Under the pieces are notes generated by a model, which saw only the letters and a program-made list of their open reading frames with translations, made no database searches and was not told the DNA's origin. Both the position numbers and the translations under genes were made by a program. From assembly GCA_036651815.1 (NCBI GenBank), contig JAVVXB010000005.1, forward strand, positions 2,107 to 66,106: DNA of 64,000 nt, written 5' to 3'. The DNA comes from Clostridia bacterium. GTDB lineage: Bacteria; Bacillota; Clostridia; Christensenellales; CAG-138. Position 1 is the stretch's first letter. Every line of letters starts with the position of its first letter. Below are positions 3,657 to 61,269 of the stretch, in pieces.

Positions 3657-3681
3657 TTTGTGGGCATGGTCTGTTCCGGTA

Positions 3682-5252: not shown

Positions 5253-5313
5253 GCAACATCCGCTACAGGGCCGGCGTTCGTCCGGCTCTTCGTCGGTTTC
5301 GGGAGGATTGGAT

Positions 5314-7719: not shown

Positions 7720-7720
7720 A

Positions 7721-9039: not shown

Positions 9040-9044
9040 GTATT

Positions 9045-11861: not shown

Positions 11862-12052
11862 AAAAATATCCTCCTATGGCCATTATAATATGAAATGCTG
11901 AAAAAACCAAAAAATATTACGTCCTGTGCGGCTCTTTGCGTTTTCCCGAATACTTCCATGACCGAAATCGACCGGATTGGAGACACTATCCCCATACCAA
12001 AAATGCGATTTGCTGCATAGGATGGTAGGAAGAAGAATGGGAGACGCACACA

Positions 12053-36485: not shown

Positions 36486-36558
36486 ACTTGCTATATCCCA
36501 ATCTGTTTTGATTTTATTTTCACAGCGCCGTACACGCCATTGCCTTGTTACATAATCT

Positions 36559-36599
36559 GCGGCAAGAGGTGCCTGGACAGGGTCCGGACATCTTGCCGC
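36559..36599 (-). other. GC-rich stem-loop between the permease gene and malQ
   Basis: Perfect 9-bp inverted repeat GCGGCAAGA (36559-36567) / TCTTGCCGC (36591-36599) with an internally pairing loop. No U-tract on either strand. Confidence 0.5.
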
Positions 36600-36649
36600 A
36601 GGAGAATCCCCCACTGGTTTAAACGCCGATGAACTGTTGATGCATTCGA

Positions 36650-37489
36650 TCAGCCCTTCACCGCACCATCGACAACACCCTTGATGATGTATTTCTGTGC
36701 CGCCAAATAAAACAGAATAATTGGGATGATGGCAAGCACAAGGCACGCCATGATCGCGCCCATATCCACGCGCCCGTATCCACCGCGCAGATATTGAATG
36801 ACAATCGGTATCGTCTTATACCGTTTGAGATCCAGCACAAGATACGGCAGCAGATAATCGTTCCAAATCCACATCGTCTCGAGAATTCCAACGGAGATAT
36901 AGGTAGGCTTCAAAATCGGCAGCACCACGCGGAAGAAGGTTTGCAGCGGGTTACATCCGTCTATCATGGCTGCTTCTTCGATTTCCACCGGAATGCTCTT
37001 GACAAACCCGCTGAACATGAACACCGCCAGACCCGCGCCAAACCCCAGATAGACCACGATAATCCCCCAGGGCGTTCCAAGTCCCAGCATATTGGCCGTT
37101 TTGCTCAGGGTGAACATAACCATTTGGAACGGCACGACCATGGAAAAAATGCAGAGATAATAGATCATCTTCGTCCACTTTGTCTTGACCCGATTGATAA
37201 ACCACGCACACATGGACGTACAGAGCAAAATTGCAATAACCGAGCCAACAGTGATGATAACCGAATAACCGAAGTATTTGAAGAATTCAATCTTCTGTAC
37301 CCCGGAAACATAGTTTTCCAGTCCCACAAAGCTCTCCGCATTGGGCAAGGCGAACGGACTGAGATTAATAAAGGTCTTTTCTTTGAAAGAATTGGTGAGT
37401 ATCAGCACGATCGGCAACACATAGACCACCGCCAATATTGCAAAGAACACCGTCAGCGCCATATTGGCACGCTTATCACGCTTGAGCAT
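36650..37489 (-). CDS. Carbohydrate ABC transporter permease (MalG-type)
   Basis: 279 aa, 6 TM. EAA loop IEEAAMIDGCNPLQTFFRVVLP. Confidence 0.9.
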   Translation of the reverse strand: MLKRDKRANMALTVFFAILAVVYVLPIVLILTNSFKEKTFINLSPFALPNAESFVGLENYVSGVQKIEFFKYFGYSVIITVGSVIAILLCTSMCAWFINRVKTKWTKMIYYLCIFSMVVPFQMVMFTLSKTANMLGLGTPWGIIVVYLGFGAGLAVFMFSGFVKSIPVEIEEAAMIDGCNPLQTFFRVVLPILKPTYISVGILETMWIWNDYLLPYLVLDLKRYKTIPIVIQYLRGGYGRVDMGAIMACLVLAIIPIILFYLAAQKYIIKGVVDGAVKG

Positions 37490-38331
37490 TAGGACTGCAC
37501 CTCCTTGCGTCGGGTCAGCTGCAATTGTGCCACTGCAATGACCACAACCAGCAGAAAGAACACAACCGCCTTGGCTTGGCCAACTCCCTGCCAGCCCGTG
37601 CGGCCATAGAACGTATCATAAATATTCAAGGCCAGCATCTGGCTCATCTTGGCCGGTTCACCGCCGGTCAGCGACAGGTTTTGGTCAAAGAGTTTGAACG
37701 AATTTGTGAGCGTTAGAAACGTGCAGATGGTGATGGACGGCATCAGCATGGGGAGGGTAACCCGAAAGAACGTCTGCGACTTGTTGGCACCGTCAATCTT
37801 GGCCGCCTCCATCACGTCCCCGGGAATCGACTGTAGACCAGCAATATAGATAATCATCATATAACCGATCTGCTGCCAGCACATAAGGATGACCAATCCC
37901 CAGAAACCGTAGTTTTCCGAATAGGTCAGCGTACGGCCGAAATTCATCAAAATGCCATTAAAAATCAACTGCCAAATATAGCCAAGCACGATTCCGCCAA
38001 TCAGGTTCGGCATGAAAAACACCGTGCGGAACGTATTGGTGCCGCGGATGCTGCGGGTGAGTGCCATAGCGATAAGCAATGCACAAACGTTGATGACAAC
38101 CAGTGACACAATGGCAAACAGTGCCGTGAACCAAAACGCATGTATAAACGTTGCATCGCCCCAGAGCTTTAGATAGTTGTCAACCCCAACCCATCTAGCA
38201 TCAGTAACGGTGGTAAACTTGCAAAAGGAAAGATAGATGCCCTCTAAAAAAGGCACCAGAAATCCAATGGTAAACGCCAATAGCGTTGGTAGAGCAAAGA
38301 TGGGAAAATATTTTTTTATGGCGCGTTCCAT
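37489..38331 (-). CDS. Sugar ABC transporter permease (MalF-type)
   Basis: 280 aa. EAA loop VMEAAKIDGANKSQTFFRVTLP. Confidence 0.9.
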   Translation of the reverse strand: MERAIKKYFPIFALPTLLAFTIGFLVPFLEGIYLSFCKFTTVTDARWVGVDNYLKLWGDATFIHAFWFTALFAIVSLVVINVCALLIAMALTRSIRGTNTFRTVFFMPNLIGGIVLGYIWQLIFNGILMNFGRTLTYSENYGFWGLVILMCWQQIGYMMIIYIAGLQSIPGDVMEAAKIDGANKSQTFFRVTLPMLMPSITICTFLTLTNSFKLFDQNLSLTGGEPAKMSQMLALNIYDTFYGRTGWQGVGQAKAVVFFLLVVVIAVAQLQLTRRKEVQS

Positions 38332-38429
38332 AAGTCAGCCCCCTTTATACGGAACAGTTGATGCCGGCAGCACGGCCGACGCAGTAACAGCCCGCACCTC
38401 GATAGATTAGGTGGTATTCCTAGAAGCAA

Positions 38430-38557
38430 AATTTGCGGTTTCGAATGGATTTTTTATCAATCCAAGCGGAGAATTCGCGATTTTACTGAAAATAAATCTA
38501 GAATTCAGAGCGCCAATCTGGTAGAAAAAGAACCTGAAAACGCTTTTCACGGAATTT
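38430..38557. repeat. Intergenic repeat element, copy B (~120 nt)
   Basis: AATTTGCGGTTTCG (38430-38443), AAGCGGAGAATT (38464-38475), GAAAACGCTTTTC (38536-38548), GGAATTT (38551-38557). Block order and spacing match copy A (block 1 to block 3 is 117 vs 119 nt). Confidence 0.6.
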
Positions 38558-38590
38558 AGAAATACATTTTAGTATAACCAACTTTCGCTT

Positions 38591-38625
38591 GAAAAGAAAG
38601 GGTGAACTGTGTAGTTCACCCTTTC
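38591..38625 (-). terminator. Intra-operon terminator/attenuator after the binding-protein gene
   Basis: Minus strand: GAAAGGGUGAACU-acac-AGUUCACCCUUUC then UUUUC, 15 nt after the SBP stop and upstream of the permease genes. Confidence 0.7.
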
Positions 38626-38639
38626 CGTGGTTCTAACGG

Positions 38640-39938
38640 TTATTCTGCATGAGCAGCCGCATATTCGGTTGCCCAGCCATCCACAAACGCGGTTACGACG
38701 CCCGCCCATTCGCCGGTACCGGCAGCATAGGCAGTCAGTGCGGAACCAAGACCGTTCTTCCATTCTTCGGAAGGCATTGTGGTGAAGCACCACTTGACGG
38801 AGGTCTTGCCCGTGGCAATGTAATCGTTGGCAGCGCGGATCAGCGCGTTGTCCGGCAGATACTCCGTGCCAAAGGATTTGAACGGCGTCACAAAGCCCAT
38901 GTCGTTGGCCATGCAGGTACGGCCTTCGTCAGAGGTAATCACCCAGTTCAGAAAATCCAAGGTGGCTTTCTGGTCTGCTTCGCTGGCCTTGTTATTGACG
39001 CACCAGTAGTTCTCGGAACCAGTGCAAAGCCCCTGATTCTCCTCACCATCTACACCAATGTAGATGGGCAGCATGCCCAGGTTCTCGTCACCAAGATCCT
39101 TAATGTCGTTGTAAGCCCAAGTGCCGTTCTGATAGAACGCAGCTTTTCCGGTCTTGAATTCTGCAACCGCATCGTCGCCAGTCTTGCTGGAAAGCAACGC
39201 TGCATCGGTCGTGGAATCGGTGATATACAGATCCCAGATGGCCTTATAGTTGTCGAGGAACGTGCCCTTGATGGCAGCTGTTTCGCCGATGCCATCCGCC
39301 GCATATTCATAGTAAACGGGTAGGTTGGCAAGATGGGTCTTGAATCTCCAGTCGGAGGAACCATCCATGCCCGCGGAGGTGAAGGCACCTTCGATGCCAA
39401 GGTCGGCCTTCTTGGCCTGCATGTCGTCTGCGACGGCCTTGAGGGTTGCGAAGTTATTGATCTCGGAAACGTCTTTGATCAGTGCACCGGTCATCGCGGC
39501 ATACTTGTCGATGATGGCCTTGTTGTAGATGATGCCATAAGTCTCGATAACATACGCAATCCCGTAGACCGCGTCGCCCTCTTTTAAGGCAAAGTCATCG
39601 CTCGTCAGCTGTTTGTAAACTTCACTGGCGGACAGATCCGCGCAATAGCCCTTCCAGTTGTTGAGGCCGACAGGTCCGTTCACCTGGAACAGCGTGGGCG
39701 CTTCGGTCTTGGCAATTTCGCTTGTCAGCGTGCTTTCATAGGTGCCGGAAGCTGCGGTAACCACGGTGACCGGGATCTTGGTCTGCTCCGTATAGGTCTT
39801 GGCAAGCTGCTGCCACTGTGCATCTTGCTCCGGTTTAAAGTTGAGATAATAGACGGACGCGGTGTCTGCTTTTTTGCAGCCGGCAAACATGCCAACTGCC
39901 ATGACAAGCACCAAAATCAGGGCGATTGTTTTTTTCAT
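38640..39938 (-). CDS. Carbohydrate ABC transporter substrate-binding lipoprotein (maltodextrin-type by context)
   Basis: 432 aa. Lipobox MFAGC. Family-1 SBP architecture. First gene of the operon with two permeases and malQ. Confidence 0.88.
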   Translation of the reverse strand: MKKTIALILVLVMAVGMFAGCKKADTASVYYLNFKPEQDAQWQQLAKTYTEQTKIPVTVVTAASGTYESTLTSEIAKTEAPTLFQVNGPVGLNNWKGYCADLSASEVYKQLTSDDFALKEGDAVYGIAYVIETYGIIYNKAIIDKYAAMTGALIKDVSEINNFATLKAVADDMQAKKADLGIEGAFTSAGMDGSSDWRFKTHLANLPVYYEYAADGIGETAAIKGTFLDNYKAIWDLYITDSTTDAALLSSKTGDDAVAEFKTGKAAFYQNGTWAYNDIKDLGDENLGMLPIYIGVDGEENQGLCTGSENYWCVNNKASEADQKATLDFLNWVITSDEGRTCMANDMGFVTPFKSFGTEYLPDNALIRAANDYIATGKTSVKWCFTTMPSEEWKNGLGSALTAYAAGTGEWAGVVTAFVDGWATEYAAAHAE

Positions 39939-40027
39939 AATTGATCCTTCCTATTCTTTGATTTGTATTTTCCAGCACACGTTGCGCATGCTAAGAAACC
40001 ATAATAATGTGATTGTACATCCCTTTA

Positions 40028-41050
40028 TCAAGCCTGGTAGGTAAGCACCGATCCCCCCGGCCGCAGCGTGGTCTTGAACGTAACGTTGCGGTGCTGCCCG
40101 TGCCCCTCAATCAGATCGATCAGCGTTCTGGCGCAAGCAAGCCCCATCTCCTCTGCCGGCTGCACAAGGGTGGTGAGCGTTGGCAACATATAAGCGGAAA
40201 GCTCCAAGCCATCGATGGCTACAACGGAGCAATCGTCCGGCACGCGCCGTCCCCGGTCACTGAGTGCCTTGATAGCCGCAATGGCCATTAGGTCAGCAAT
40301 GGCGAAGATGGCCGTGAACGCCGCACCGCGGTCGATCATATCGGTCACCGACCGGTAAATAGCGCCCATATCCGAAAAGCTTTTGGAGCAAGCAACCAAA
40401 TTTCGGTCAAAGGCGATGCCACGTTCCGCCAGCGCGGACCGATATCCTTCTGTGCGCAGTTCGCTGATGGAGGTATCATGCTCATCGTTGCAAAGGATGG
40501 CGATCTTTCGATGACCCAGTTCATAAAGTGTATGGACAGCAAGCCGCGCAGCCTGCTTATCATCAATCGCAACCGAGGAATAGGTATCCAGCGCGAGGCT
40601 ACCAAAGGAATTTGTATAGGTACACATGACAAATGGAACCGTGATGCAAGCAATATCCTCGGGCACATAGTTGAATCGCCCGCCAAGAAACAGGATGCCC
40701 CGTAACTTACGTTCCGTCACCAGCAACGCGGCCGCATGCAGTTCATCCTCGGACGTGTCTATCTGGTGCAATTCCAACGTGAAACCCCGCTCAGTCACCT
40801 CACGTTCAATGGCTTTAATCAGTTTTGCAAAAAACGGATTGTTCACACCCTTGACCAGCAATGCGATTGCATCGGACGTCGTTCTTACCAAATTTCTTGC
40901 ACTGTTGTTGGGAATATAGTGAAACCGTTCCACGGCTTCCATCACTTTTATACGCGTCTGTTCGCTCACATCCGGATGATCGTTGAGTACGCGCGAGACG
41001 GTGCTGACAGCAACGTCGCAATACTGCGCAATATCCTTGATATTCGTCAT
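40028..41050 (-). CDS. LacI family transcriptional regulator
   Basis: Start chosen at ATG 41050 (MTNIKDIAQYCDVAVSTVSRVLN, HTH_LacI). The C-terminal part is a periplasmic-binding-fold sugar sensor. Confidence 0.9.
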   Translation of the reverse strand: MTNIKDIAQYCDVAVSTVSRVLNDHPDVSEQTRIKVMEAVERFHYIPNNSARNLVRTTSDAIALLVKGVNNPFFAKLIKAIEREVTERGFTLELHQIDTSEDELHAAALLVTERKLRGILFLGGRFNYVPEDIACITVPFVMCTYTNSFGSLALDTYSSVAIDDKQAARLAVHTLYELGHRKIAILCNDEHDTSISELRTEGYRSALAERGIAFDRNLVACSKSFSDMGAIYRSVTDMIDRGAAFTAIFAIADLMAIAAIKALSDRGRRVPDDCSVVAIDGLELSAYMLPTLTTLVQPAEEMGLACARTLIDLIEGHGQHRNVTFKTTLRPGGSVLTYQA

Positions 41051-41491
41051 GGTGATGCTCTCCGAAACTCTATGGACAATTAGTAGGAAACGTTCCCGGT
41101 AACGATACTGGTAACGTTTCCGGTTCTTCGAGATCATTCTATCACCGCCATTTCCCATTGTCAACTCGTTTTGGCCAAAATCAGGAATATATTTCCTTCT
41201 TCTTGCACTTGTTTCTAAAGAAGACATCGCTGATCCGCGTGTTTTTTTGTCGGTTTAAACAGAAGTTTTACGCAACGACGGGGCATATCCAGAATTATAG
41301 GTGCAGGAATAACAAAATTAGATTCTGATAATGTGCTTCGAAAATCGAAAAATACAGCTTAATATAATCATCTCGATTATGCAGGATTGTACCCCCACAA
41401 TTTTTTTAATAATTATATAAACAAGATTCGTTACACTCGCTGGATTCTGGTATACTAAGTAAGAATCATATATATAAGGGAGGGTGCATCT

Positions 41492-43376: not shown

Positions 43377-44054
43377 ATGCGCTTATTGATTATCGAGGAC
43401 GACACTGCTTTATGCAGCGCACTATCCCTGCATCTATCGAACGGCGGTTATGACGTGGACGTGTGCAACAGTGGCACAGACGCAGCGTATTACCTGCGTG
43501 ACAGCGCCTACAGTGCGATCATTCTCGACCGCATGCTGCCCGGTATGGACGGGTTGACGCTGCTTAAGCGCTTACGGGAAACGGGTGACGTAACCCCCGT
43601 GCTAATGCTGACAGCAATGGATGCCATTTGTGATCGTACGGCTGGGCTGGATGCCGGCGCGGACGATTACCTTGTCAAGCCCTTTGCCATGCCAGAGTTG
43701 CTTTCGCGGGTACGCGCACTAATGCGGCGACCGGCAGGATTGGGTGAGATGGGCAGACTGACATTCCTCGATTTGACGCTGGATGCGCGAAAATGTCTAT
43801 TGCGCCGCGGAAGTGCTGAATTGACGCTCTCCAGAAAAGAAGCGGCGGTTCTGGAGCTGTTGTTCGAACATTCTGAAATGGTATTATCCCGCGCACAGAT
43901 CCTATCCCGCGTTTGGGGCGGAGATGAACCGGTGGAGGAAGGAAACGTGGACAACTACATCTACTTTGTACGAAAGCGGCTAAAGACACTGGGCACATCC
44001 GCCGCCATCAAGAGTATCCACGGCGTGGGCTACACGCTCGTGAATGGTTTGTGA
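43377..44054 (+). CDS. Response regulator, OmpR/PhoB family
   Basis: Start chosen at ATG 43377 (GGAAGGAG RBS). LLIIEDD and AIILDRMLPGMDG. Winged helix ...SIHGVGYTL. Confidence 0.9.
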   Translation: MRLLIIEDDTALCSALSLHLSNGGYDVDVCNSGTDAAYYLRDSAYSAIILDRMLPGMDGLTLLKRLRETGDVTPVLMLTAMDAICDRTAGLDAGADDYLVKPFAMPELLSRVRALMRRPAGLGEMGRLTFLDLTLDARKCLLRRGSAELTLSRKEAAVLELLFEHSEMVLSRAQILSRVWGGDEPVEEGNVDNYIYFVRKRLKTLGTSAAIKSIHGVGYTLVNGL

Positions 44055-44055
44055 T

Positions 44056-45330
44056 ATGGAAGAGCAAAAACTGCGCGCCCGCCTAATTCGGCTCTATGTG
44101 CTAACGGTGGCGCTGGTATTGGCGGCGCTGTTGGCCGTAATACTGTTGCTGTCGTCCCGCGAGGTGGAGCAAAAAAACAAGGAAAGTTTTGCTACGCTGC
44201 TGACCTCCGTGACCGAGCGGCTGCAAACGGAGTCCATCGTCCAGCACAGCTGGCTCAAACGAATGGAAACGGAAAACAGTTTATTCATCCACATTGAAGA
44301 TAACGGGACGCAATTGCTGTACAATAGCATCGATGGCGCGGATCGGATGCTGTTGTTTGATACCGTCTGTCGTCTATCCCGGCAAGCAGGTATTGACGTT
44401 GCCGCCGTGCCGTTGTATGCAGATCGGCAAACGAGTGACCCGCTCCGTTTTACGCTGAACCATGCGGCCTACTTTGGTGCCGTCAGCCTGATCCCAGCAG
44501 GAAACGGATACCGTTCGCTCATCATGGCGCAGCAGATTATTACGGGCAATCAGTCATGGCGGTTCGGTCTGTTTGCAATCTGTTATTTACTTGCCGTGCT
44601 GCTACTCTCGCTTACGGGTGTTCGCCTGATTGACCGCGCACTGCAACCGGCTGTTGAAAGCCGAATACGGCAGACGGCGTTTATTGCCGCGGCCTCGCAT
44701 GAACTACGTTCGCCGCTCGCAGTCATTCAGGCCAATGCCGCAACGCTAACAGCCGCACCAGCGCAGATCCCCGCCGCCGCCGCCACCATCGCAAACGAAT
44801 GCGCCCGTATGTCACGGTTGATTGGCGATCTGTTGCTGTTGGCTTCGACAGATGCGAAGAGTTGGCCGGTCACCCTGACCATGCTGGATATGGACACCGT
44901 GCTGCTCAACGTTTATGAAATGTACCGCTCCGTGTGCGCAAAGCAGGGACTAGACTTGCATCTGCATCTGCCCGATCATCCTTTGCCCCCGGCCAAGGGT
45001 GATGCGCAGCGCCTTGCTCAGGTACTAGGCATTCTGCTTGAAAACGCCATTGCCTATGGCACCAGTCCACAGTGCAGTTCCATCGAGCTTTCTGCCTATC
45101 CGCACCGGCAGCAAGTGATCATCGAAGTGATTGACCATGGACCGGGCGTTGCCGATGCACAGAAAGCATATGTTTTCGACCGCTTCTTCCGCGGCGACCG
45201 TTCCCGCAAGGACAAGCAACACTTTGGTTTGGGACTCTCCATTGCTTATGAGTTGATTGCGTTGCACAAGGGAACGATTACACTCAGCGACACCTTAGGC
45301 GGTGGATGTACGTTTCGTATCTGCCTATAA
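44056..45330 (+). CDS. Sensor histidine kinase (2 TM, ~130-aa extracytoplasmic loop)
   Basis: Start at ATG 44056 (or 44044). H-box SHELRSPLAVI, N-box ENAIAYG, G-boxes DHGPGV and FGLGLSIAYE. Confidence 0.85.
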   Translation: MEEQKLRARLIRLYVLTVALVLAALLAVILLLSSREVEQKNKESFATLLTSVTERLQTESIVQHSWLKRMETENSLFIHIEDNGTQLLYNSIDGADRMLLFDTVCRLSRQAGIDVAAVPLYADRQTSDPLRFTLNHAAYFGAVSLIPAGNGYRSLIMAQQIITGNQSWRFGLFAICYLLAVLLLSLTGVRLIDRALQPAVESRIRQTAFIAAASHELRSPLAVIQANAATLTAAPAQIPAAAATIANECARMSRLIGDLLLLASTDAKSWPVTLTMLDMDTVLLNVYEMYRSVCAKQGLDLHLHLPDHPLPPAKGDAQRLAQVLGILLENAIAYGTSPQCSSIELSAYPHRQQVIIEVIDHGPGVADAQKAYVFDRFFRGDRSRKDKQHFGLGLSIAYELIALHKGTITLSDTLGGGCTFRICL

Positions 45331-45582
45331 TTCAATCGATAGGTGCCTTTCCCCCGATTCGCTGCTCCCGCACGCAGAGTGCGCTTTCATCCGTCAAAAA
45401 GACCCCTCGCATTGTGACGGACCTCCGTCCATCACACATTCAATCCATTTTTGATGAATTCTTCGGCAGGGCGGATTACCCGGTCTAAGCGTCCCCTGTG
45501 CATTTTGCCGACCGCGCCAATTTTCGGCGTAGGCATAAAGCATGTATCCCCTCCCCCGAAAACGATGGCTTTTCAGTGTTGA

Positions 45583-45608
45583 AAGACGCATGACGCGTCT
45601 TTTTTTTA
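45583..45608 (+). terminator. Intrinsic terminator 250 nt downstream of the kinase gene
   Basis: AAGACGC-atgac-GCGTCTT followed by a T-run (nine consecutive T at 45600-45608, the first two closing the stem). Confidence 0.75.
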
Positions 45609-45751
45609 CTGTCTGCACGCTAGGATATGTTTCTGAAAAAGAGTCCTATCTGGTGTCATGTGTATTTTCTGCCCATTCAAGCATTAAATTGACAAATTTA
45701 TTGAAGTAAAAATCGGGAAATTGAAACCCAGAAGTGGCAACCGAATATCGC

Positions 45752-45771
45752 GAAAACGCTTTTGGAAAATT
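45752..45771. repeat. Partial copy (block 3 only) of the intergenic repeat
   Basis: GAAAACGCTTTT (45752-45763) followed by GGAAAATT. The same core and following GGAA(N)TT occur in copies A and B. The other blocks were not found here. Confidence 0.4.
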
Positions 45772-45850
45772 AAAAATTGTACGCTAGAGGAATTTTAGAG
45801 AATTGACTGCTATCATGAAATTTGTAAATTAATAGAAACGAGGTTCTTCT

Positions 45851-48076
45851 ATGAAAACACAAAAAATAATCGCACTGCTATGCGCGTCTCTGCTGTTGCT
45901 TTTCTGCCTGTCCGGCTGCAGACGTGCGCCGCAAGCAGACAACGGTGCCATACCCGGTGCGTTGGGCCGCTATATGGAGGAGCCGGTTACTCTGCCACTG
46001 CCCGAGGGTGCAACGGAACAATCTCTGATTGGCATGTGCGCAGCCGCTGATGGCATGGTTTATTTTACCTGCGTATATCATGGGCAGGATGATGCATTCT
46101 ATGTCGATTATTTTCGTCATACGGTGAAAATCGAAGGCAGCGTCACAACACAGAAAGAACAATGGCTCTCCGATTCCGCACCGAAGGGTGGCAATGAACT
46201 CAGTCTCATCCGTTCCGATAACGGAACGCTGTATTTCAGCTATAACGATTATGATGCGGATGGCAACACCGTCCCTCACATCCTTGTGAGCCATGACGAC
46301 GGTAAGACATCGGAGACGCTTACGGGCACAGGTGTCACGGGCCATGATTTTATCCTCAAATTAGGCGTGTCTACAGATGGCCGCATCGTGGTGGCCAATA
46401 TGGGTGCGGACAATCTCGTCGTACTGGATGCGCAGGGTAATGTCCAGGATGAACTGGCCATCGACCGCGATCACGCGTCTCATTTCTCTGTGTCGGGGGA
46501 CAAAGTCATCTGCGTTGCCCCATCGGGAGATGCCGTGCGCGTATATAATCTTTCCGATAATTCTAGTGTGGATTTTCCGTTTGCGATTAGTCAAGGCACG
46601 GTCGCCTTTGCCGTCGCCAACGATGGCGCTGTATATCTGGCCAACGCCACCGGCTTGTTTCGGCATACAGCAGACGGCACACTTTGGGAACAGCTTGTAG
46701 AGGGCGGCGTAACCAGCATCGGCATGCCAAGCTATTATATTTGTCAGTTATCCGTGCAGAGCGGTGAACAGAATTCTCTCTATGTCAGTGGATATGCCGA
46801 TGGTAGCGGCATGCAGGTCTATCGTTATTTCTTTGATTCCGAGGCCGCGCAGACCGCTGACATTGAGCTGAATGTGTTTTCGCTACACGCCAGCGAACCT
46901 GTGCAGCAAGCAGTGGTCGCGTTCAATCGTGCACACAGCGAGATTCGGATAAACTATACCGTTGCCATGGAACAGGGCGGCGCGGGTACGGAACAGGACT
47001 ATGCCAAGGCGCTGAATACAGAATTGCTTGCGGGAACCGGACCGGACGTTTTGATTCTCGATGGCTTGCCGATCGATTCCTATACGGAAAAGGATGTCCT
47101 TCTGGATCTCTCCACCATCGTGGACGGTGCGGAACCGGTACTTCCCCAGATTCGGAGGGCTTATGAGCAGGACGGTCACCTGTATACCATGCCGCTTGGT
47201 TTTGGCATGCTTATGGCGCTTGCCAAGGACGGCGCAGAAACCGCATTCACCTCGCTGGAGACGCTCGCATCCTACCAGAGCAGCTCTGGTTTGCCGATTT
47301 TGAGCAATACAGCCTTTTCCTATGAGACGCTCGCCAACATGCTGCTAACCTACTATGGAAAAGACCTGCTTGCCGGGCAAGCAGAGGCCGTACGAAGCTT
47401 TCTGGAGAATGCCGCCCTGCTGAAAACAAATATACGCGCGACCGACAAACTGGGCGCGGGCTGGGATATCTTTTCTGATATGCCGGGGGAAGAACTTCAA
47501 CAGATGCTGCAGTCAAATTCTAATCCGCCGCAGCTCTTTGCCTTTATGACAGAACGTGTATGCGCCGCGCTTCTCTCCATCGACTCGCCGTCATCTGAGA
47601 ACTTCATGATGGCCGCGGCGGCCGCGGCACAAACCAATGCAGCGCTGTCCTCCGTCAACGGTCAATTTTTCCCCGTTGGTTTAGCGGGGATCAACCGTGC
47701 CAGCAAACAGCCGGAAGCCGCAGCATTGTTTTTGAACACACTGTTGAGTAAGCAAGTCCAGAACGCCAGTAACAATACCGCGTCCTTCCCCGTCAATCTC
47801 GCTGCGCTGGACGCCGTACTGAACTATGAAAATCCGAATATAAGTTGCGGCTTACTTCTAACGGCCACGGATTCACTCAATGCCAGCTGGCCCGTTCCGG
47901 AGCAGAGGGAACGGCTGCGCACCGAAATTGACCATCTTAAAACGCCGTTGTCCATGGATATTGCCCTGCAGCAGATGCTGTTACCGGAGGTCACCGCCTA
48001 TCTCGACGAGAGTGTACCGCTCGATGCGGCAGTGGGCAAGATTGTCAATCTGCTGTCAACGTATCTGGCCGAATAA
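45851..48076 (+). CDS. Lipoprotein: N-terminal ~340-aa repeat-rich (beta-propeller-like) domain fused to a family-1 ABC solute-binding domain
   Basis: 741 aa. Lipobox CLSGC. The N-terminal half has recurring DG-x-(V/L)Y(F/L) strands. The C-terminal half (from ~IELNVFSLHASEPVQQAVVAFNRAH...TGPDVLILDGLPIDSY) looks like an extracellular solute-binding protein. Confidence 0.75.
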   Translation: MKTQKIIALLCASLLLLFCLSGCRRAPQADNGAIPGALGRYMEEPVTLPLPEGATEQSLIGMCAAADGMVYFTCVYHGQDDAFYVDYFRHTVKIEGSVTTQKEQWLSDSAPKGGNELSLIRSDNGTLYFSYNDYDADGNTVPHILVSHDDGKTSETLTGTGVTGHDFILKLGVSTDGRIVVANMGADNLVVLDAQGNVQDELAIDRDHASHFSVSGDKVICVAPSGDAVRVYNLSDNSSVDFPFAISQGTVAFAVANDGAVYLANATGLFRHTADGTLWEQLVEGGVTSIGMPSYYICQLSVQSGEQNSLYVSGYADGSGMQVYRYFFDSEAAQTADIELNVFSLHASEPVQQAVVAFNRAHSEIRINYTVAMEQGGAGTEQDYAKALNTELLAGTGPDVLILDGLPIDSYTEKDVLLDLSTIVDGAEPVLPQIRRAYEQDGHLYTMPLGFGMLMALAKDGAETAFTSLETLASYQSSSGLPILSNTAFSYETLANMLLTYYGKDLLAGQAEAVRSFLENAALLKTNIRATDKLGAGWDIFSDMPGEELQQMLQSNSNPPQLFAFMTERVCAALLSIDSPSSENFMMAAAAAAQTNAALSSVNGQFFPVGLAGINRASKQPEAAALFLNTLLSKQVQNASNNTASFPVNLAALDAVLNYENPNISCGLLLTATDSLNASWPVPEQRERLRTEIDHLKTPLSMDIALQQMLLPEVTAYLDESVPLDAAVGKIVNLLSTYLAE

Positions 48077-48079
48077 CCC

Positions 48080-48997
48080 ATGAAAGCACAAATGCACCCC
48101 CAATCCCCGCAGCATCGACTCTGTCGGGCAGGACATCATTCTGCCCGGCAGAATGCCAAAGCAATAACAGCGCTCTGCTTCCTTGCCCCTAGCTTGATCG
48201 GAATCACAGCCATGTTTCTACTCCCCACCCTTGACGTGGTACGCAGATCTTTTTTCTCTGCGATGGGTAATTCATTTGTAGGACTGGCAAACTATCAAAC
48301 CGTACTGCTAAACGCATCCTTTCGGTTGGCCGTTTCGAATACGGGACGATTTCTGCTTGTGTGCATTCCCCTGCTGCTGCTGCTTTCGTTGTTTACCGCG
48401 CTGTTGCTCATCCGGCAGAAATGGTGTCAGCAGCTGTTTCGGACAACATACCTATTGCCACTTGCCATTCCGGTAACAAGCGTGGTTCTTATCATCCAAA
48501 CGGTATTCGCAAAAAACGGACTACTGTCCGCGTTGTGTGCTTTCTTTGGAAAAACGCCTGTGGACTGGCTCAACAGTCCCTATGCGTTCTATGTCCTCGT
48601 GGCGTGCTATCTATGGAAAAATCTCGGTTACAACGTAATCCTGTGGTTGGCTGGGCTTTCTGCCATCCCACAGTCGTACTACGAGGCAGCGTGGGTGGAT
48701 GGTGCAAACGAGGCGCAGTGTTTTCGAAAAATTACGCTCCCACTGCTGACACCCACGCTGTTTATGACCACAGTGCTGGCGTTGATCAACTCCTTTAAGG
48801 TGTTTCGAGAGGCATATTTGGTGGCAGGGCAATATCCACATATCAGCATCTATATGCTGCAGCACGTGTTATCCAATTGGTTCGCCAACCTTGACATGCA
48901 GAAAATCAGTGCAGCGGCAACGCTGCTGATGGCGGTCATCTTCCTCATCCTGTTCTTGTTACAACGTATTACGCGGAAAATGGAGGACCCCCAATGA
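48080..48997 (+). CDS. Sugar-type ABC transporter permease (MalF-type, BPD_transp_1)
   Basis: 305 aa. EAA loop YYEAAWVDGANEAQCFRKITLP. Confidence 0.88.
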   Translation: MKAQMHPQSPQHRLCRAGHHSARQNAKAITALCFLAPSLIGITAMFLLPTLDVVRRSFFSAMGNSFVGLANYQTVLLNASFRLAVSNTGRFLLVCIPLLLLLSLFTALLLIRQKWCQQLFRTTYLLPLAIPVTSVVLIIQTVFAKNGLLSALCAFFGKTPVDWLNSPYAFYVLVACYLWKNLGYNVILWLAGLSAIPQSYYEAAWVDGANEAQCFRKITLPLLTPTLFMTTVLALINSFKVFREAYLVAGQYPHISIYMLQHVLSNWFANLDMQKISAAATLLMAVIFLILFLLQRITRKMEDPQ

Positions 48998-49836
48998 TAA
49001 AACGCATCCTAGCGTTTTCGCTTCTTTTTTTTCTTGCATTGTTCATCTGGTACCCGTTGTGCATGCTGTTTTCCGGTGCGCTGACGCCGACATCAGAGAT
49101 GAACGAACGCCTCTGCGGTGTGCTTGGAACCGCCGATACGCTGGCATCATGGCCGATTATACCGAGTAGGCTGACATTCAAGCATGTGGTGGAGCTACTG
49201 CTCGATACGCCTGAATTCTTTGTGGTGTTCTGGAACTCCTGTATTCAGGTGTTTCCGGCGGTGATTGGCCAGGTGCTGGTGGGCGCCCCCGCGGCATGGG
49301 CACTCGCAAGGTTTCATTTTCGCGGTCGCAATGCGCTCAACTGGCTGTATATCGTACTGATGATTCTTCCGTTTCAGGTAACGATGGCATCGAGTTATAT
49401 CGTACTTAGTAAGCTTTCGCTCGTAGATACCCACCTTGCCGTCATTCTGCCCGCGCTGTTTTCGGCGTTTCCCGTATTCATCATGAGCAAATTCTTCGGA
49501 AAGATCCCGCAGGAAATGTTGGAAGCCGCTCGAATCGATGGCGCCAGCGAACTGCAATTATTCATGCGTATCGGCGTCCCGATGGGCGCGCCGGGCATCC
49601 TGTCGGCAGCGCTGTTGGGCTTTATGGAATGCTGGAACGCAGTCGAGCAGCCCATTACGTTTCTCAAAACACCGTCGCTATTTCCACTGTCGATCTTTCT
49701 GCCCAAAACAACTATCGAGCAAGCGGGCGTTTCATTCGTGGTGGCGATCATCACCCTGCTGCCCGCGCTGCTATTGTTTCTATATGGGCAGCAGAATCTC
49801 GAGCAGGGCATCCTCGCATCCGGCATCAAGGAGTAA
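48994..49836 (+). CDS. Carbohydrate-type ABC transporter permease (MalG-type)
   Basis: 280 aa, ATGA overlap with the upstream gene. EAA loop MLEAARIDGASELQLFMRIGVP. Confidence 0.88.
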   Translation: MIKRILAFSLLFFLALFIWYPLCMLFSGALTPTSEMNERLCGVLGTADTLASWPIIPSRLTFKHVVELLLDTPEFFVVFWNSCIQVFPAVIGQVLVGAPAAWALARFHFRGRNALNWLYIVLMILPFQVTMASSYIVLSKLSLVDTHLAVILPALFSAFPVFIMSKFFGKIPQEMLEAARIDGASELQLFMRIGVPMGAPGILSAALLGFMECWNAVEQPITFLKTPSLFPLSIFLPKTTIEQAGVSFVVAIITLLPALLLFLYGQQNLEQGILASGIKE

Positions 49837-49842
49837 TTTAGA

Positions 49843-50991
49843 ATGAAACAGACAAGCAATCAATCCCCCACCGAGCAGCCAGCGCAGCCTCATAGTGTGG
49901 CAAAGCGCGCCCTTTCGACGTTCATTTGGTTTTTTATCATCATGCTGATGCTGACGTTTCTTTCCCGTTCCGCAAGCCGCGCGCTCATGGCTAAGGTGAC
50001 CATCAAGTATCCGGGTTCCGGCGTGATTGATCTGAGCATCCGTGGCACGGGCAAATGGGTGCCGGGGGAAACGAAGACACTGCGGCTGAAATATCCACGT
50101 CGCATCAATCACGTTTTTTTTACCGTCGGCCAATGGATCGAAATTGGTGATTCCCTGTTTTCTTACGATGTGACAACCACCGCCGGCGGGCACAAGGTTT
50201 CCTCAACCAAGATCGACAGCGCGAAGAAAAAGCTGAGAACTGCACAATCCGCGTTGGACGAGGCCGTGAGCGGACTACCAGAGGGAAGCCATACGGATTC
50301 CGCAGCCGTGCAGTCCCTGCGCGATTGGTTAACAACCGCCGAACGGGCAGTGCAGTACGAAACCTTTGCCTATGAACAGAACTATGCCATCCAGATGCGA
50401 GAGGGACTCGTGCAGTCAACCATTGGCGGCCTCATCGTCAAACATGATCTCGTTGAGGGCAAGACCGTGACTCCGAACACGGAAAGCATACAGATTTCGC
50501 CGGAGGGTTCACGGCTGGAACTCTCTGTTTCTGCCGAAACCGCAAAGGCATTATCGTTCGGCGATGTCGTAACACTCACGGAAAACGGCAAGGAATTATC
50601 TGACACCGCAAAGATCATAAAGCTTGGTCTGCCCGATGCCGATGGGAACATAGCCGTGCAGTGCAGCGTCCAAAGCTGTGATCTCACGCCCATCCTAGGC
50701 AATCCGCAGGACTTGATCATCAAGAAGCAGTCCATTCGATACGATCTCATCGTCCCCATTGAGGCGCTCCGTCAGAGCGGCGCAGATCAGTTGTTTGTAC
50801 TGGTATTGGACGAAAAGAAAACGGTCATGGGCACGCAGTTAACGGTACGGAGCGTAAACGTAGAGCTGCTCTGCCGGGATACCAACCGCGCGGCGGTTAC
50901 TGGCGCCCTTTCGCAGCAGGACCGGTTGATTGCAACCAGTTCCAAACAGCTCACTGCGGGCGACTTTGTGGTGATCCAAGATGAGCGCTAA
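49843..50991 (+). CDS. HlyD/membrane-fusion-protein-like periplasmic adaptor (tentative)
   Basis: 382 aa. N-terminal TM, lipoyl-like hairpin INHVFFTVGQWIEIGDSLFSYD, coiled-coil segment, and beta-barrel-like C-terminus (LIVPIEALR...FVLVLDEK...GDFVVIQD). Confidence 0.65.
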   Translation: MKQTSNQSPTEQPAQPHSVAKRALSTFIWFFIIMLMLTFLSRSASRALMAKVTIKYPGSGVIDLSIRGTGKWVPGETKTLRLKYPRRINHVFFTVGQWIEIGDSLFSYDVTTTAGGHKVSSTKIDSAKKKLRTAQSALDEAVSGLPEGSHTDSAAVQSLRDWLTTAERAVQYETFAYEQNYAIQMREGLVQSTIGGLIVKHDLVEGKTVTPNTESIQISPEGSRLELSVSAETAKALSFGDVVTLTENGKELSDTAKIIKLGLPDADGNIAVQCSVQSCDLTPILGNPQDLIIKKQSIRYDLIVPIEALRQSGADQLFVLVLDEKKTVMGTQLTVRSVNVELLCRDTNRAAVTGALSQQDRLIATSSKQLTAGDFVVIQDER

Positions 50992-52219
50992 ACGTATTCC
51001 TTTTTTATGCCTACTCCTATCGTTCCAATTTTTTCTGCTTTGGGGACTGGCATTGCATGCGGGGCAATGGATGCAGGCAAACTATGAGGGTGTGAGCGTA
51101 CGCGTTACAGGCACACCGCTGCCGCAATCCCAACTGACGGATGCGTGGGCACGTCAGAACGAATCTGAATTGACGAGCATGACTGCATGGAGTCGCAGTG
51201 ATGCCGTCACCGTTAAAAACAGCGGTCTGCAAACCGTCGCCACAGCAAGGGTTATTACCGTACTTGGCGATATGCGGCGCGTTTGCCCCGCAACGCTGGT
51301 GGATGGAAGCTATCCATACCCGAATGACACAGGCTACTGTGTCATCGATTTAGCCACAGCAAATATGCTCTTTCACTCGGCGGATGTGGTGGGTGCGCGG
51401 CTAAGCGTGGATCAGGTAGAATACACGGTTGTGGGCGTAGTGGATGCCTATGAGCGTATGCTCATGCTTCGCTCCTCCAGCGCTGCCGCGACCTATGCCA
51501 ATCTTGAATTCACCTGCGCCGATGCTGAGCAAGCGCATTCGCTGGTGGAATCGTTTCTCTATCGCTACAAGCTCACGAATGAATATGTCCTCGTGGAAAG
51601 CGGCGTTTACATGCACATTCTATCCAGCCTACTTGGCATGCCTGGCTGGATCTTCGGCTTTGCCACGGTCGGAGCGCTGCTTCATGAGGCACACCGCAGA
51701 CGTGCCAAGCCACTGTCTTGTGGGGTGCTGTTGCTCACAGCAGCAGGGAGCGCTGGAATGCTTATTTGGTTACTAGCCATTTATCCTGACTTTCCGCAGA
51801 TGTATCTACCTACAAAATGGTCGGACTTTTCGTTTTGGGGTAAGCAGTTTGATCAATGGCGCCAAGCATGGCAAGAAATATCCTTGCTCACCCCCATGCC
51901 AAAGGAGGTACAGTTTTTTTCCGCGCTGCGTCAATGTCTTATGTTACTGGCAGCTGCAACCGCAACAGGCCTCCTGCTGATGGGTCAGTTGCAGTTGCGT
52001 CTGCAAAATGACTGGGAATGGCTCGGCGTTCTGCTCATGCTGCTCATCACGACCATTTCCATAGCATTGCTACGGTTGCATGGCATAGACTTTGTTTGGA
52101 CGCGCGGATATCTGTGCGCATTGCCGCTGTGGCGAACTGCGAAATTGATTCTGTGCTCACTGTCGCCCATCCCTCGCTCGAACGAATATGGAAGTGCATC
52201 ATGCTCAACCAAATCCTAA
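50981..52219 (+). CDS. Membrane protein with a MacB-type extracytoplasmic core domain (FtsX-like permease relative, tentative)
   Basis: 412 aa. TM1, then a ~190-aa extracytoplasmic region including GYCVIDLATANMLFHSADVVGARLSVDQVEYTVVGVVD (MacB_PCD-like), then about four TM segments. 11-nt overlap with the upstream gene. Confidence 0.55.
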   Translation: MSAKRIPFLCLLLSFQFFLLWGLALHAGQWMQANYEGVSVRVTGTPLPQSQLTDAWARQNESELTSMTAWSRSDAVTVKNSGLQTVATARVITVLGDMRRVCPATLVDGSYPYPNDTGYCVIDLATANMLFHSADVVGARLSVDQVEYTVVGVVDAYERMLMLRSSSAAATYANLEFTCADAEQAHSLVESFLYRYKLTNEYVLVESGVYMHILSSLLGMPGWIFGFATVGALLHEAHRRRAKPLSCGVLLLTAAGSAGMLIWLLAIYPDFPQMYLPTKWSDFSFWGKQFDQWRQAWQEISLLTPMPKEVQFFSALRQCLMLLAAATATGLLLMGQLQLRLQNDWEWLGVLLMLLITTISIALLRLHGIDFVWTRGYLCALPLWRTAKLILCSLSPIPRSNEYGSASCSTKS

Positions 52220-52974
52220 GCTATATCCTTTTAGGATTCCTTTTATTGGCTGCTGTAATGGCGCTGTATTTGCCATTTTATTTCATTTTCCGAAAACGAA
52301 TCCCGTTTATCCGCCAGATTTGCGTCGTGCTGCTGATTGGGAGCGTATTGGTTGTCCTTTGCGCCACGCTGCTGCTCTCAATTTTTGCAATTGTCGATAT
52401 GGGTTATCCGCTCTTTCAGCGGGTTCACCTTATCAACTGGATACCCCTCAGCTGGCTGGTCAAGCCCTGGACGATGGGCCGTGAAAAAATGCTTGCGCAG
52501 ATCGTCGCAAACATATTGATGCTGGTTCCGCTTGGCTTTCTGCTGCCAATTGTTTTTGCTCAATTGCGTAGATTTTGGAAAACTGTTCTGTGCGTTTTCT
52601 TACTGATGCTCACCATTGAGTTTTTTCAGTATTGGATCGGCTCATCCGCAGACATTGACGACCTCATTCAAAACACGCTAGGGGCAATGATCGGATATGG
52701 ACTATTCGCACTGTTCTCGCAGCAGCTGGGATGTAAAGCATGGTGGCATAAGGCGCTCAATCATCCGTGTTCGCACCGATGTTCGGCACAAATAAATGCA
52801 GTTAGATCATGTTTAAAAAAAGAAAAATTAACGGTTATGCATGGATATTTTTGTCAGTTCAAGCAGCGCATTCGCCGGTTTGCTGGAAGTAACGCTATCA
52901 ACTCGGAACGTAGAGCCGGCAAAAACCTATTGGGAATGCTTTTGATGAATTTAAAACATGCCTCCATCTATTGA
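52201..52974 (+). CDS. VanZ family membrane protein
   Basis: Start chosen at ATG 52201, a 19-nt overlap with the upstream gene. INWIPLSW...NILMLVPLGFLLP...EFFQYWIGSSADIDDLIQNTLGAMIGY is the VanZ pattern. Confidence 0.75.
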   Translation: MLNQILSYILLGFLLLAAVMALYLPFYFIFRKRIPFIRQICVVLLIGSVLVVLCATLLLSIFAIVDMGYPLFQRVHLINWIPLSWLVKPWTMGREKMLAQIVANILMLVPLGFLLPIVFAQLRRFWKTVLCVFLLMLTIEFFQYWIGSSADIDDLIQNTLGAMIGYGLFALFSQQLGCKAWWHKALNHPCSHRCSAQINAVRSCLKKEKLTVMHGYFCQFKQRIRRFAGSNAINSERRAGKNLLGMLLMNLKHASIY

Positions 52975-58502: not shown

Positions 58503-59606
58503 TTACTTTCCCACCTTTCTTGTTCTCCTGCGCTGCCACCATTTCCGGATCCGTTCAAAGTTGGTCTGGATCAATTTGCTGGTTGCAGAGAAATAGATAA
58601 TAATTGCAATGATCGCATCCGCAATCTCTGGTGGAATGCCAGCCATCGAATTCATAAACCCTTTCCCCGTATGCAAAACGCTTAAAAACAGCGCGGCAAA
58701 TATGGTACCGATCGGCGAATTCCCCGCCAAGATGGCAACCGCAATTCCATCAAACCCTTGGCTGGGCAATACGCCAATCTGCATGTTTGTGTTATAACCA
58801 GCATAGCATGCAGCACCGGCAAGACCGGCCAGTAGCCCTGAAATCGTCATTGATTTGATGACATTGCCTTCCACGTTGATTCCGTTGCACTCCGCAGCAT
58901 ATTTATTGAATCCAACTGCCTTCATTTCGTATCCAAGTATGGTTTTTTCTAAAATGAAAAGTATCGCTACCGCTGCAAGTATCGCAATCAGTATGCCAAG
59001 GTTCAGTTGTGAACCACCGGTTGCTTTTGTCAGTGCTTCAACCTTTAGGTTTGCTGCAGCCGGAAATGACACTGACTGGGAATCGATGGTCGCGGATTTA
59101 AAATGATCGAAAACGGTGTTGTAGACAATCCAGTATGCACACCAGTTGAGCATGATACAGGATACCACTTCGTTGACATTGAACTTCGCCTTCAAAATAC
59201 CCGAAATAAAACCCCATGTTGCGCCACCGAGCATGGACGACATCAATACAATAGGAAGAAGGATCGCTTTGGACATACCGGTAGGTGCCAGCCAGTTGCC
59301 CACCGCAAGAGCCGCCAACCCGCCCATCAGCATTTGTCCAGACGCGCCAATGTTGAAAAGGCCGGTTCGGAACGAAAGTACCAACGACAGCCCTGTTAGG
59401 ATCAGCGGTGCAGAATAGGCGATGGTATTGGCAATGCGGGAAACGCTCATCAGTCCGCCCTTGAACAGGAATCCATAGCCTTTGATCGGATCCATGCCAC
59501 TCACCAGCATCAATATGCTGCCGGCAATCAATCCCATCAGGATCGCAACGAGGGAAGCAATCAGCGCACCATTTGAACCGCTGCGATTGCTACGTTTAGT
59601 TTCCAT
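58503..59606 (-). CDS. Nucleoside (BMP-type) ABC transporter permease
   Basis: Start chosen at ATG 59606 (GGGGGTG RBS). FRTGLFNIGASGQMLMG is typical of the RnsC/NupP/YufP family. Confidence 0.85.
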   Translation of the reverse strand: METKRSNRSGSNGALIASLVAILMGLIAGSILMLVSGMDPIKGYGFLFKGGLMSVSRIANTIAYSAPLILTGLSLVLSFRTGLFNIGASGQMLMGGLAALAVGNWLAPTGMSKAILLPIVLMSSMLGGATWGFISGILKAKFNVNEVVSCIMLNWCAYWIVYNTVFDHFKSATIDSQSVSFPAAANLKVEALTKATGGSQLNLGILIAILAAVAILFILEKTILGYEMKAVGFNKYAAECNGINVEGNVIKSMTISGLLAGLAGAACYAGYNTNMQIGVLPSQGFDGIAVAILAGNSPIGTIFAALFLSVLHTGKGFMNSMAGIPPEIADAIIAIIIYFSATSKLIQTNFERIRKWWQRRRTRKVGK

Positions 59607-61146: not shown

Positions 61147-61269
61147 CCGTCTAATCCTTTCGCTCACTCCCTGCTTAAAAAGCGCTGCCGGTATCTCTTG
61201 CGCGTCGTACCCTTTTCGATACCGGCAGCCTCCGCCTCAAGCAATTTCCAGAGGAATTCAGTCTACCGA

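Follow-up and report, generated by a model that had tools for sequence, protein, structure and literature searches.

The window described here is a stretch of 64,000 nt from the genome of a Clostridia bacterium (contig JAVVXB010000005.1). Between positions 43377 and 52974 it encodes an OmpR-type two-component system (TCS) and, following this on the same strand, an ATP-binding cassette (ABC) transport module. In this module a solute-binding protein (SBP) and two type-I importer permeases (P1 and P2) are encoded together with a membrane-fusion protein (MFP) and a membrane protein with the fold of MacB (the MacB-like protein). These five proteins and the TCS, which comprises a response regulator (RR) and a sensor histidine kinase (HK), are the core unit. 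It is ABC machinery made of known parts in an undescribed, conserved combination.

The features are itemized in Table 1. The genes from the lipoprotein to the VanZ-family protein form a six-gene operon (45851-52974), with junctions of +3, -4, +6, -11 and -19 nt. The gene coordinates and junctions agree with those of the original prediction, made from the letters of the sequence, and its five motif-based assignments of the parts all hold when judged by Pfam and NCBIfam matches and by predicted folds.

Table 1. Positions of the module genes and candidate signals, and of the maltodextrin-type locus of the same window
Feature	Position	Strand	Evidence
OmpR/PhoB-family RR	43377-44054	+	Response_reg 1.5e-26, Trans_reg_C 1.6e-17
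Sensor HK, two transmembrane (TM) segments	44056-45330	+	HisKA 9e-13, HATPase_c 5e-22
Intrinsic-terminator-like hairpin and T-run, 3' of HK gene	45581-45611	+	consensus match only
Sigma-70-like promoter candidate, 5' of transporter operon	45803-45830	+	TTGACT-16-TAAATT, 9/12 matches
Lipoprotein of 741 aa, propeller-like N-terminal part and family-1 SBP C-terminal part, CbpC subfamily	45851-48076	+	
Type-I ABC permease P1 (MalF/UgpA-like), EAA loop	48080-48997	+	
Type-I ABC permease P2 (MalG/UgpE-like), EAA loop	48994-49836	+	
Membrane-anchored MFP (YknX/AcrA-like), 382 aa, short alpha-hairpin	49843-50991	+	
MacB/LolC-fold membrane protein (MacB-like, with MacB-type core domain), 412 aa	50981-52219	+	
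VanZ-family membrane protein, lineage-specific accessory	52201-52974	+	VanZ 2.7e-23
Maltodextrin locus, LacI regulator	40028-41227	-	
Maltodextrin locus, SBP_bac_8 protein	38640-39938	-	
Maltodextrin locus, two BPD_transp_1 permeases	36650-38331	-	
Maltodextrin locus, GH77 4-alpha-glucanotransferase	34998-36746	-	

The proteins of the module

The MacB-like protein is marginal at the level of its sequence. It reaches 27.1 bits against MacB_PCD (PF12704), for which the cutoff is 27.0, it has no match to FtsX (PF02687) in Pfam at E<=0.1, and the profile of its family matches the core domain of MacB at 1.8e-4. Its assignment to MacB in the original prediction is upheld by the fold, however. A model calculated with AlphaFold2 (AF2) from 51 family members has a mean pLDDT of 91.5, and its top matches in the PDB found with Foldseek are exclusively membrane domains of type-VII ABC transporters. 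These include MacB (1.3e-11), Spr0695 of S. pneumoniae (5.4e-10) and LolE (2e-8), together with LolC, HrtB and YknZ, all within the range 1e-11 to 1e-6. Aligned with the core domains of MacB and YknZ in isolation, the model gives TMt values of 0.65-0.70 and RMSD = 3.6-3.8 Å. Alignment with full-length MacB, Spr0695, LolC/E and HrtB extends over ~390-440 columns, with whole-chain TM-scores of 0.3-0.45. On the basis of the model the FtsX-type fold of TM2 to TM4 is probably retained despite the divergence of the sequence.

In the model TM1 (residues 2-34) is followed by the extracytoplasmic core domain (38-205), after which the chain continues as TM2 (220-239), TM3 (244-265) and TM4 (307-339). 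Two extra helices C-terminal of TM4 are present in only a subset of the family. Following TM3, an extracytoplasmic loop and helix (276-286) bears the near-invariant family motif LPTKWSDFxFW. MacB, LolC/E and FtsX bind their ATPase through a coupling helix. In the MacB-like model the link between TM2 and TM3 comprises ~4 residues, and is short throughout the family, while ~6 residues precede TM1 and the cytoplasmic N- and C-termini are almost nil. There is therefore no space for an ATPase-binding coupling helix, and as modelled the protein would be without any means of binding an ATPase of its own. Cys120 (in the motif GCxID of the core domain) and Pro277 are the sole invariant residues in the 51 members, for which the mean column identity is 23%. 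Judged from the alignment, Cys120 and the LPTKWSDFxFW loop are candidate functional or interface sites.

Grouped at 50% identity, the family comprises 995 clusters by exhaustive profile search at E<=1e-10 and 1592 at the looser threshold of E<=1e-3, its members being ~310-450 aa long. Word-indexed searches gave only 4-6 relatives, and the apparent rarity of the family in these searches is an artefact. No Pfam or NCBIfam model spans more of the family than the core domain. The gene is not pseudogene debris, which is ruled out by its conservation and by the pLDDT of 91.5.

The MFP has no Pfam match, its match to TIGR01730 (RND_mfp, 7.4e-12) is under the cutoff of that model, and a search of the PDB with its sequence gave no match, so that it was identified by fold search alone. 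The AF2 model (pLDDT 76) has a TM helix (18-48), an alpha-hairpin (110-143/154-180) and lipoyl, beta-barrel and membrane-proximal (MP) domains, and over its full length Foldseek matches it to AcrA, MexA, MacA, CusB and BesA at 1e-17 to 1e-12. The HlyD-like adaptor proposed originally for this gene, weak by sequence, is thus borne out by the predicted structure, and homologues of the protein match BSH_YknX, YknX_C, HlyD_3 and HlyD_D23 in Pfam. Across the loci the length of the MFP ranges from 362 to 800 aa. Nearly all the variation is carried by the alpha-hairpin (55-387 residues), with the other domains near-constant at ~61, 117-150 and 81 residues, and the shortest hairpins are those of the window and its closest relatives. 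The variation fits a tube matched to the thickness of the wall.

The lipoprotein has the lipobox LSGC, and all the aligned SBPs of the family have a lipobox and a length of 700-880 aa. SBP_bac_1 is matched by residues 350-637 of the 741 (E 3.5e-9). With a profile of 27 family SBPs, the N-terminal 330 residues match WD40 and PQQ beta-propellers at 1e-17 to 1e-9; a match of the lipoprotein itself to the LpqB propeller Gmad1 (E 0.05) is not significant. The profile of the 27 SBPs matches CbpC (PDB 7x0o) at 1.4e-33, the next-best SBP being at 1.6e-12. The C-terminal residue is an invariant glutamate, with a conserved tyrosine before it (Y-L-x-E-stop), in 27 of the 27 module SBPs and in CbpC; read from the alignment, this fixed terminus suggests that the end of the chain makes a specific contact. 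In some loci (L026, L037 and L045) the gene for the large SBP occurs as two or three paralogues in tandem.

Both permeases match BPD_transp_1 (PF00528), P1 at 5.8e-18 and P2 at 6.1e-14, and fall under the equivalog cutoffs of UgpA (3.9e-21 for P1) and UgpE (6.7e-23 for P2). They form a subfamily of their own. Across families they match one another at 1e-60 to 1e-136, compared with 2e-29 and 6e-17 for the canonical CUT1 pair of the window. Both carry EAAxxDGAxxxxxFxxIxxP. The EAA loop of P1 (EAAWVDGANEAQCFRKITLP) keeps the motif in 33 of 34 loci, and for that of P2 (EAARIDGASELQLFMRIGVP) the EAA regular expression is matched in 31 of 35 loci, with no match in the other four. Since these loops are conserved in both, the permeases are built to dock an ATPase.

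The sole ABC ATPases in the window are PstB (6919-7719) and one of nucleoside type (59596-61167), each located in its own operon. The ATPase genes that lie near the module in other genomes were considered as cognate and rejected. That located 5' of P1 in L039 represents only the C-terminal part of a bacteriocin exporter of C39-peptidase type that has decayed, that of L044 is an intact C39-peptidase ABC exporter (PCAT), those of L015 and L040 are LanF/DrrA-like, and those of L004, L007 and L024 are in unrelated operons. By neighbour clustering over the loci no ATPase gene recurs, including any of FtsE, LolD or YknY type.

The window also has a canonical CUT1 locus of maltodextrin type on the opposite strand (34998-41227), and this is likewise without an ATPase gene. 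It provides an internal control, from which it appears that the genome supplies CUT1 ATPases in trans. In C. thermocellum the cellodextrin transporter B uses the unlinked ATPase Clo1313_2554 (PMC9601137). Taken with such documented sharing of unlinked ATPases, the maltodextrin locus makes the missing gene ordinary. The original prediction was therefore correct that no ATPase is encoded at the locus, but not in treating this as an oddity, since it is routine for systems of CUT1 type; its proposal that an ATPase is borrowed from elsewhere agrees with the conserved EAA loops, which fit supply in trans. The unusual feature is the obligatory MFP and the MacB-like partner lacking a nucleotide-binding domain (NBD), not the absent ATPase.

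Conservation and genomic context

A genome scan with the motif of the MacB-like family returned 40 loci, to which context look-ups added ~10. Loci were mapped with phmmer and hmmsearch, and the synteny rests on ~45 related loci. Those of the scan are from Oscillospiraceae, Christensenellaceae, Lachnospiraceae (Lachnobacterium bovis, Marvinbryantia and Hungatella), Scatolibacter and one Enterococcus. In all loci with enough flank (~35) P1, P2, the MFP and the MacB-like protein are encoded directly one after another, in that order and on one strand; in public gene calls adjacent genes overlap slightly or are separated by no more than +25 nt. The MacB-like family was never found apart from P1, P2 and the MFP where flank was available. 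The gene for the large SBP lies 5' of this block, 3' of it or on both sides. All seven genes (SBP, P1, P2, MFP, MacB-like, RR and HK) are retained in at least five arrangements; if P1-P2-MFP-MacB-like is written as the core these are RR-HK-SBP-core, divergent HK-RR / SBP-core, core-SBP-RR-HK, core-RR-HK-SBP and SBP-core-HK-RR. The original prediction had set as its test whether the importer half adjoins the MFP/MacB-like half only by chance. It does not; the two are kept together over deep divergence and in several gene orders.

The TCS travels with the module. An RR/HK pair homologous to that of the window adjoins it in ~25 loci, with E values of 1e-55 to 1e-150 compared with ~1e-10 to 1e-35 for other TCSs at module loci; for the RR taken singly the flanking homologues lie at 1e-55 to 1e-105 and unrelated RRs at ~1e-30. 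The association with a TCS that was noted originally in the window is thereby confirmed as one kept in most lineages. The topology of the HK, read from its sequence, has an extracytoplasmic domain of ~140 aa between the two TM segments and no HAMP domain. Following the HK gene in the window, the terminator originally placed at 45583-45608 is seen as a hairpin and T-run with a 9-pair stem (perfect 8-nt arms) and then TTTTTTTT, although as a consensus match only. Counts of hairpin- and sigma-70-type sites in the region are not above those of shuffled sequences, and so both this hairpin and the promoter are candidates only. The sequences 5' of the operon and the RR gene were scanned for direct repeats that could be boxes for the RR, and none was convincing.

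The final gene of the operon does not belong to the conserved unit. The VanZ match (PF04892) is secure, at 83.4 bits against a cutoff of 30.1, but the gene is limited to the window and three close Oscillospiraceae loci (L010, L011 and L014). The six-gene unit of the original prediction is thus retained for the SBP, P1, P2, the MFP and the MacB-like protein, and VanZ is removed from it as a local accessory of four loci. Its scores are far under the cutoffs of the NCBIfam resistance alleles vanZ-A, vanZ-F and vanZ-Pt, and therefore no resistance function is assignable. The frame extends in the 5' direction as far as an ATG at 52018, 202 nt within the MacB-like gene; the start at 52201 (MLNQILSY…), as chosen originally, is consistent with the position of the VanZ domain. 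The protein has a C-terminal extension of ~85 aa without a domain match.

Apart from VanZ in these four closely related loci, clustering of the neighbours reveals no other recurrent gene, and in particular no recurrent carbohydrate-active enzyme (CAZyme) or sugar regulator adjoining the module. One subclade (L005 and L049-L053) lacks the TCS, and has the arrangement SBP-P1-P2-MFP-MacB-like-SBP. In L005/L006 and L049/L050 the module is located in a housekeeping region (rpsB-tsf on the 5' side; thiamine pyrophosphokinase and iPGM on the 3' side), beside envelope-modifying enzymes of PMT or MBOAT type. The neighbours differ in L051-L053, where they are GH2, PGA_cap and Band_7.

In L044 (Enterococcus sp. 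UD-01) the region directly 5' of the SBP gene (1181-4479) encodes three products. One of 233 aa has by eye the look of a LytTR-type regulator, one is a peptide of 55 aa whose leader is of the double-glycine type (…QRQINGG|WCLRANF…), and the third is an intact PCAT of 732 aa. Together the three genes look like a locus for a class II bacteriocin or a pheromone, here joined to the module. In L039 (Lachnobacterium bovis S1b) two open reading frames (ORFs) lie between the SBP and P1 genes (5062-6728), and are fragments of a decayed ABC transporter for peptide cleavage and export. One has part of the C39 domain and part of the transmembrane domain, and the other has the end of the transmembrane domain and the NBD, overlapping the start of P1. 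A scan of all loci for double-glycine leaders, too strict to catch the peptide of L044 (which was noticed by eye), gave spurious matches only, and on this basis a general link of the module with bacteriocins was rejected; the link is confined to L044 and L039.

The family has a member that has been studied. CbpC belongs to transporter C of C. thermocellum (CbpC-MsdC1-MsdC2, Cthe_2125-2128; PMC8303734). The metagenome contig L047 is 100% identical to 382 residues of the query sequence of CbpC from the PDB, and its genes follow in the order cbpC, a MoxR fragment, P1, P2, a 447-aa MFP (HlyD_D23/HlyD_3), an ORF matching MacB_PCD (60.6 bits) and the TM part of the MacB-like gene. The MoxR-type AAA fragment (6956-7615), located between cbpC and the first permease gene, is truncated. 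The MacB-like gene is in two frames, with TM1 and the core domain in 11095-11769 and the TM part in 11808-12518, a break that may be genuine (a split or a frameshift) or due to faulty assembly. Among the members of the module family only transporter C has experimental data, and it has previously not been recognized as a member. In PMC9601137, PMC8303734 and PMC7471329 it is treated solely as a candidate sugar importer; genes labelled 'acra' and 'hp' appear in the legend to Figure 1 of PMC9601137, with 'AcrA' nowhere else in its text. In isothermal titration calorimetry and nuclear magnetic resonance experiments CbpC bound none of glucose, xylose or the cellodextrins G2 to G5, its pocket is blocked by an extra loop, and loss of transporter C left growth on glucose, cellobiose and Avicel normal (PMC9601137). 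The only member examined experimentally gives no support for sugar uptake.

Outside the module, positions 4368-10706 of the window (+ strand) may encode a pstSCAB-phoU operon and, after it, another TCS of OmpR type. This is suggested by the order of the ORFs, by Walker A and signature motifs of PstB type (ORF 6919-7719) and by RR and HK matches at 8326-9039 and 9045-10706; the identities of the remaining genes are assumed from order and size.

A possible envelope machine and its alternatives

The linkage of the genes favours one functional unit. The best reading, to which we would give slightly less than an even chance, is that a TCS-regulated type-I (CUT1-like) core and the extracytoplasmic half of a MacAB/YknXYZ system form one envelope machine that is powered in trans. 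An ATPase of MsmK type, encoded elsewhere, would dock on the EAA loops and drive the cycle of P1 and P2, which would be gated by docking of the lipoprotein receptor. The NBD-less MacB-like protein would sit at the base of a ring or tube of the MFP reaching into the cell wall, coupled to P1 and P2 either laterally or through extracytoplasmic domains, and the joint complex would handle its substrate at the outer face of the membrane. Transcription of the module would be controlled by the dedicated OmpR-type TCS in most lineages. It is rather doubtful that the five core proteins make up a single type-I/type-VII hybrid, in which a type-I importer motor with its trans ATPase mechanically drives an NBD-less 'bellows' of MacB type and a wall-spanning MFP tube, with the propeller-bearing lipoprotein gating the motor; such a hybrid would act on substrates on the outside of the Gram-positive membrane.

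A role in the envelope or against antimicrobials, such as removal, extraction or turnover of an envelope-associated compound, is favoured over carbohydrate nutrition on circumstantial grounds, because of the OmpR-type TCS, the lack of recurrent CAZymes, the data on CbpC and the sporadic accessory genes. The last comprise VanZ (four loci), the PCAT and double-glycine peptide of L044, the decayed PCAT of L039, LanF/DrrA-like ATPases near L015 and L040, and the MBOAT, PMT or PGA_cap genes of the subclade without a TCS. The substrate could plausibly be an envelope-active compound, a glycan or a lipid-linked molecule, as was originally suggested, which fits these accessory genes.

Several points weigh against the envelope machine. 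No cognate ABC ATPase is encoded in any module locus examined. The envelope-related neighbours are sporadic, and only the TCS recurs. Co-regulation of two separate devices would be expected to give similar synteny. To our knowledge, moreover, the characterized SBP-dependent type-I systems are all importers and the characterized MFP/MacB systems all move substrates outward, and therefore transport in either direction makes one half of the module non-canonical. Further points of this kind are those that speak for uptake of a nutrient. Some loci have 2-3 paralogues of the SBP, which is typical of nutrient importers, and a GH2 gene adjoins the module in L051 and L052. Binding of cellodextrins and glucose by CbpC was reported by Nataf in 2009, as cited in PMC9601137, where it is contradicted.

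These last observations would fit an importer of oligosaccharides or glycans with a wall-spanning funnel, in which the MFP tube and the core domain passively guide a bulky substrate to the receptor and to P1 and P2, and the TCS senses its availability. The SBP, the permeases with EAA loops and the trans ATPase would be the canonical CUT1 set, the length of the MFP hairpin varies as that of a wall-spanning element would, and the operon of CbpC, first reported as a cellodextrin binder, shows increased expression on xylose, glucose and fructose (PMC9601137, PMC8303734, PMC7471329). We nevertheless regard such an importer as unlikely. The absence of sugar binding by CbpC, its blocked pocket and the normal growth of the knockout (PMC9601137) all argue against it, as does the OmpR-type TCS, unlike the LacI/AraC-type regulators at the canonical sugar locus of the window. 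No recurrent CAZyme accompanies the module, and inward transport is not known for any MFP. Peptidoglycan is permeable to oligosaccharides, so that a conduit seems unnecessary.

In ~35 loci of several families the genes for P2, the MFP and the MacB-like protein keep an invariant order and either overlap or lie very close together, and the SBP and TCS genes shuffle around them; this makes it improbable that an ordinary SBP-dependent importer and a separate structural or scaffolding pair of the MFP and MacB-like protein are merely co-transcribed as independent devices. The MacB-like protein, which as modelled cannot bind an ATPase, could be a passive scaffold of this kind. Against this the family is never found away from P1, P2 and the MFP where flank is available, and the permeases form a distinct subfamily. 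It is also improbable that the complex serves chiefly as a co-sensor of the kinase beside it, in the manner of BceAB/BceS or PstSCAB/PhoR, with its activity or occupancy reporting an extracytoplasmic condition to the TCS and transport being secondary. SBPs are known partners of sensor kinases, the homologous RR/HK pair is kept beside the module in ~25 loci and at least five arrangements, and the match to Gmad1 recalls the pairing of LpqB with MtrB. That match is not significant, however, and the kinase has its own extracytoplasmic domain of ~140 aa, unlike the intramembrane-sensing BceS type. Moreover, the five-gene core is kept without an adjacent TCS both in the subclade of L005 and L049-L053 and in C. 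thermocellum.

Comparison with known transport systems

No description of a hybrid of importer, MFP and MacB-like protein was found in the full-text literature, although a curated TCDB or InterPro entry may exist. The original statement that no described system joins the two halves is to this extent upheld, but the system is not wholly unseen, since transporter C has been studied as a presumed sugar importer. The structural types of ABC transporter are thought to be mechanistically self-contained, such that type-I permeases with a binding protein import, and MacB-type proteins with an MFP act outward by mechanotransmission from their own ATPase. Type-I permeases that are always paired with an MFP and a MacB-fold protein having no ATPase interface lie outside this scheme, and suggest either that a MacB-like extracytoplasmic device is powered by a new route, or that importers of thick-walled bacteria have a new kind of accessory structure. 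Should the parts prove to make up a single complex with mechanical coupling, it would merit being called a new architectural class. The family is a large one (the 995 clusters at the stricter threshold) in abundant gut and biomass-degrading Clostridia. The module also offers an explanation for the puzzle of transporter C, with its blocked-pocket SBP and no role shown in sugar uptake. C. thermocellum is genetically tractable and a crystal structure of CbpC exists (7X0O), so that the question is directly testable.

Transporter C is like the module of the window in that its SBP is of the same subfamily (by the profile match above, in an alignment that reaches the C-terminal YLxE), in having P1, P2, the MFP and the MacB_PCD protein in this order and in having no ATPase gene. 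It differs in that CbpC is short (~460 aa) with no N-terminal propeller, and in having no adjacent TCS and no VanZ.

The systems MacAB-TolC, YknXYZ and Spr0693-0695 (type-VII ABC transporters with an MFP) share with the module an MFP that has a TM anchor and lipoyl, hairpin, beta-barrel and MP domains, and a 4-TM core with a MacB-type core domain located between TM1 and TM2. In contrast to these, the module is without an NBD, fused or separate, without the coupling helix between TM2 and TM3 and without a Pfam match to FtsX, and it always encodes two type-I importer permeases and an SBP.

The CUT1 importers (MalEFGK2, UgpBAEC and those dependent on MsmK or MsmX) likewise have a pair of BPD_transp_1 permeases with EAA loops and a family-1 SBP lipoprotein. 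In many Firmicutes their ATPase is encoded elsewhere, as would be the case for the module. The SBP of the module is, however, approximately twice the normal size and has a beta-propeller, the MFP and MacB-like protein are obligatory, and the TCS is of OmpR type; CbpC, the only SBP of the module family that has been tested, bound no tested sugar.

Like BceRS-BceAB, the module links a TCS genetically with an ABC transporter whose extracytoplasmic domain is large, and bacteriocin or lantibiotic genes occasionally accompany it. The permease BceB is of type VII with 10 TM segments and works with a dedicated ATPase, BceA, and BceS has no sensor domain. Assignment of the locus as a Bce-type module was rejected on the BPD_transp_1 permeases, the absence of BceA and the kinase with its ~140 extracytoplasmic residues. 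Compared with BceRS-BceAB, the module has permeases of the type-I fold, an SBP, and an HK with an extracytoplasmic domain of its own.

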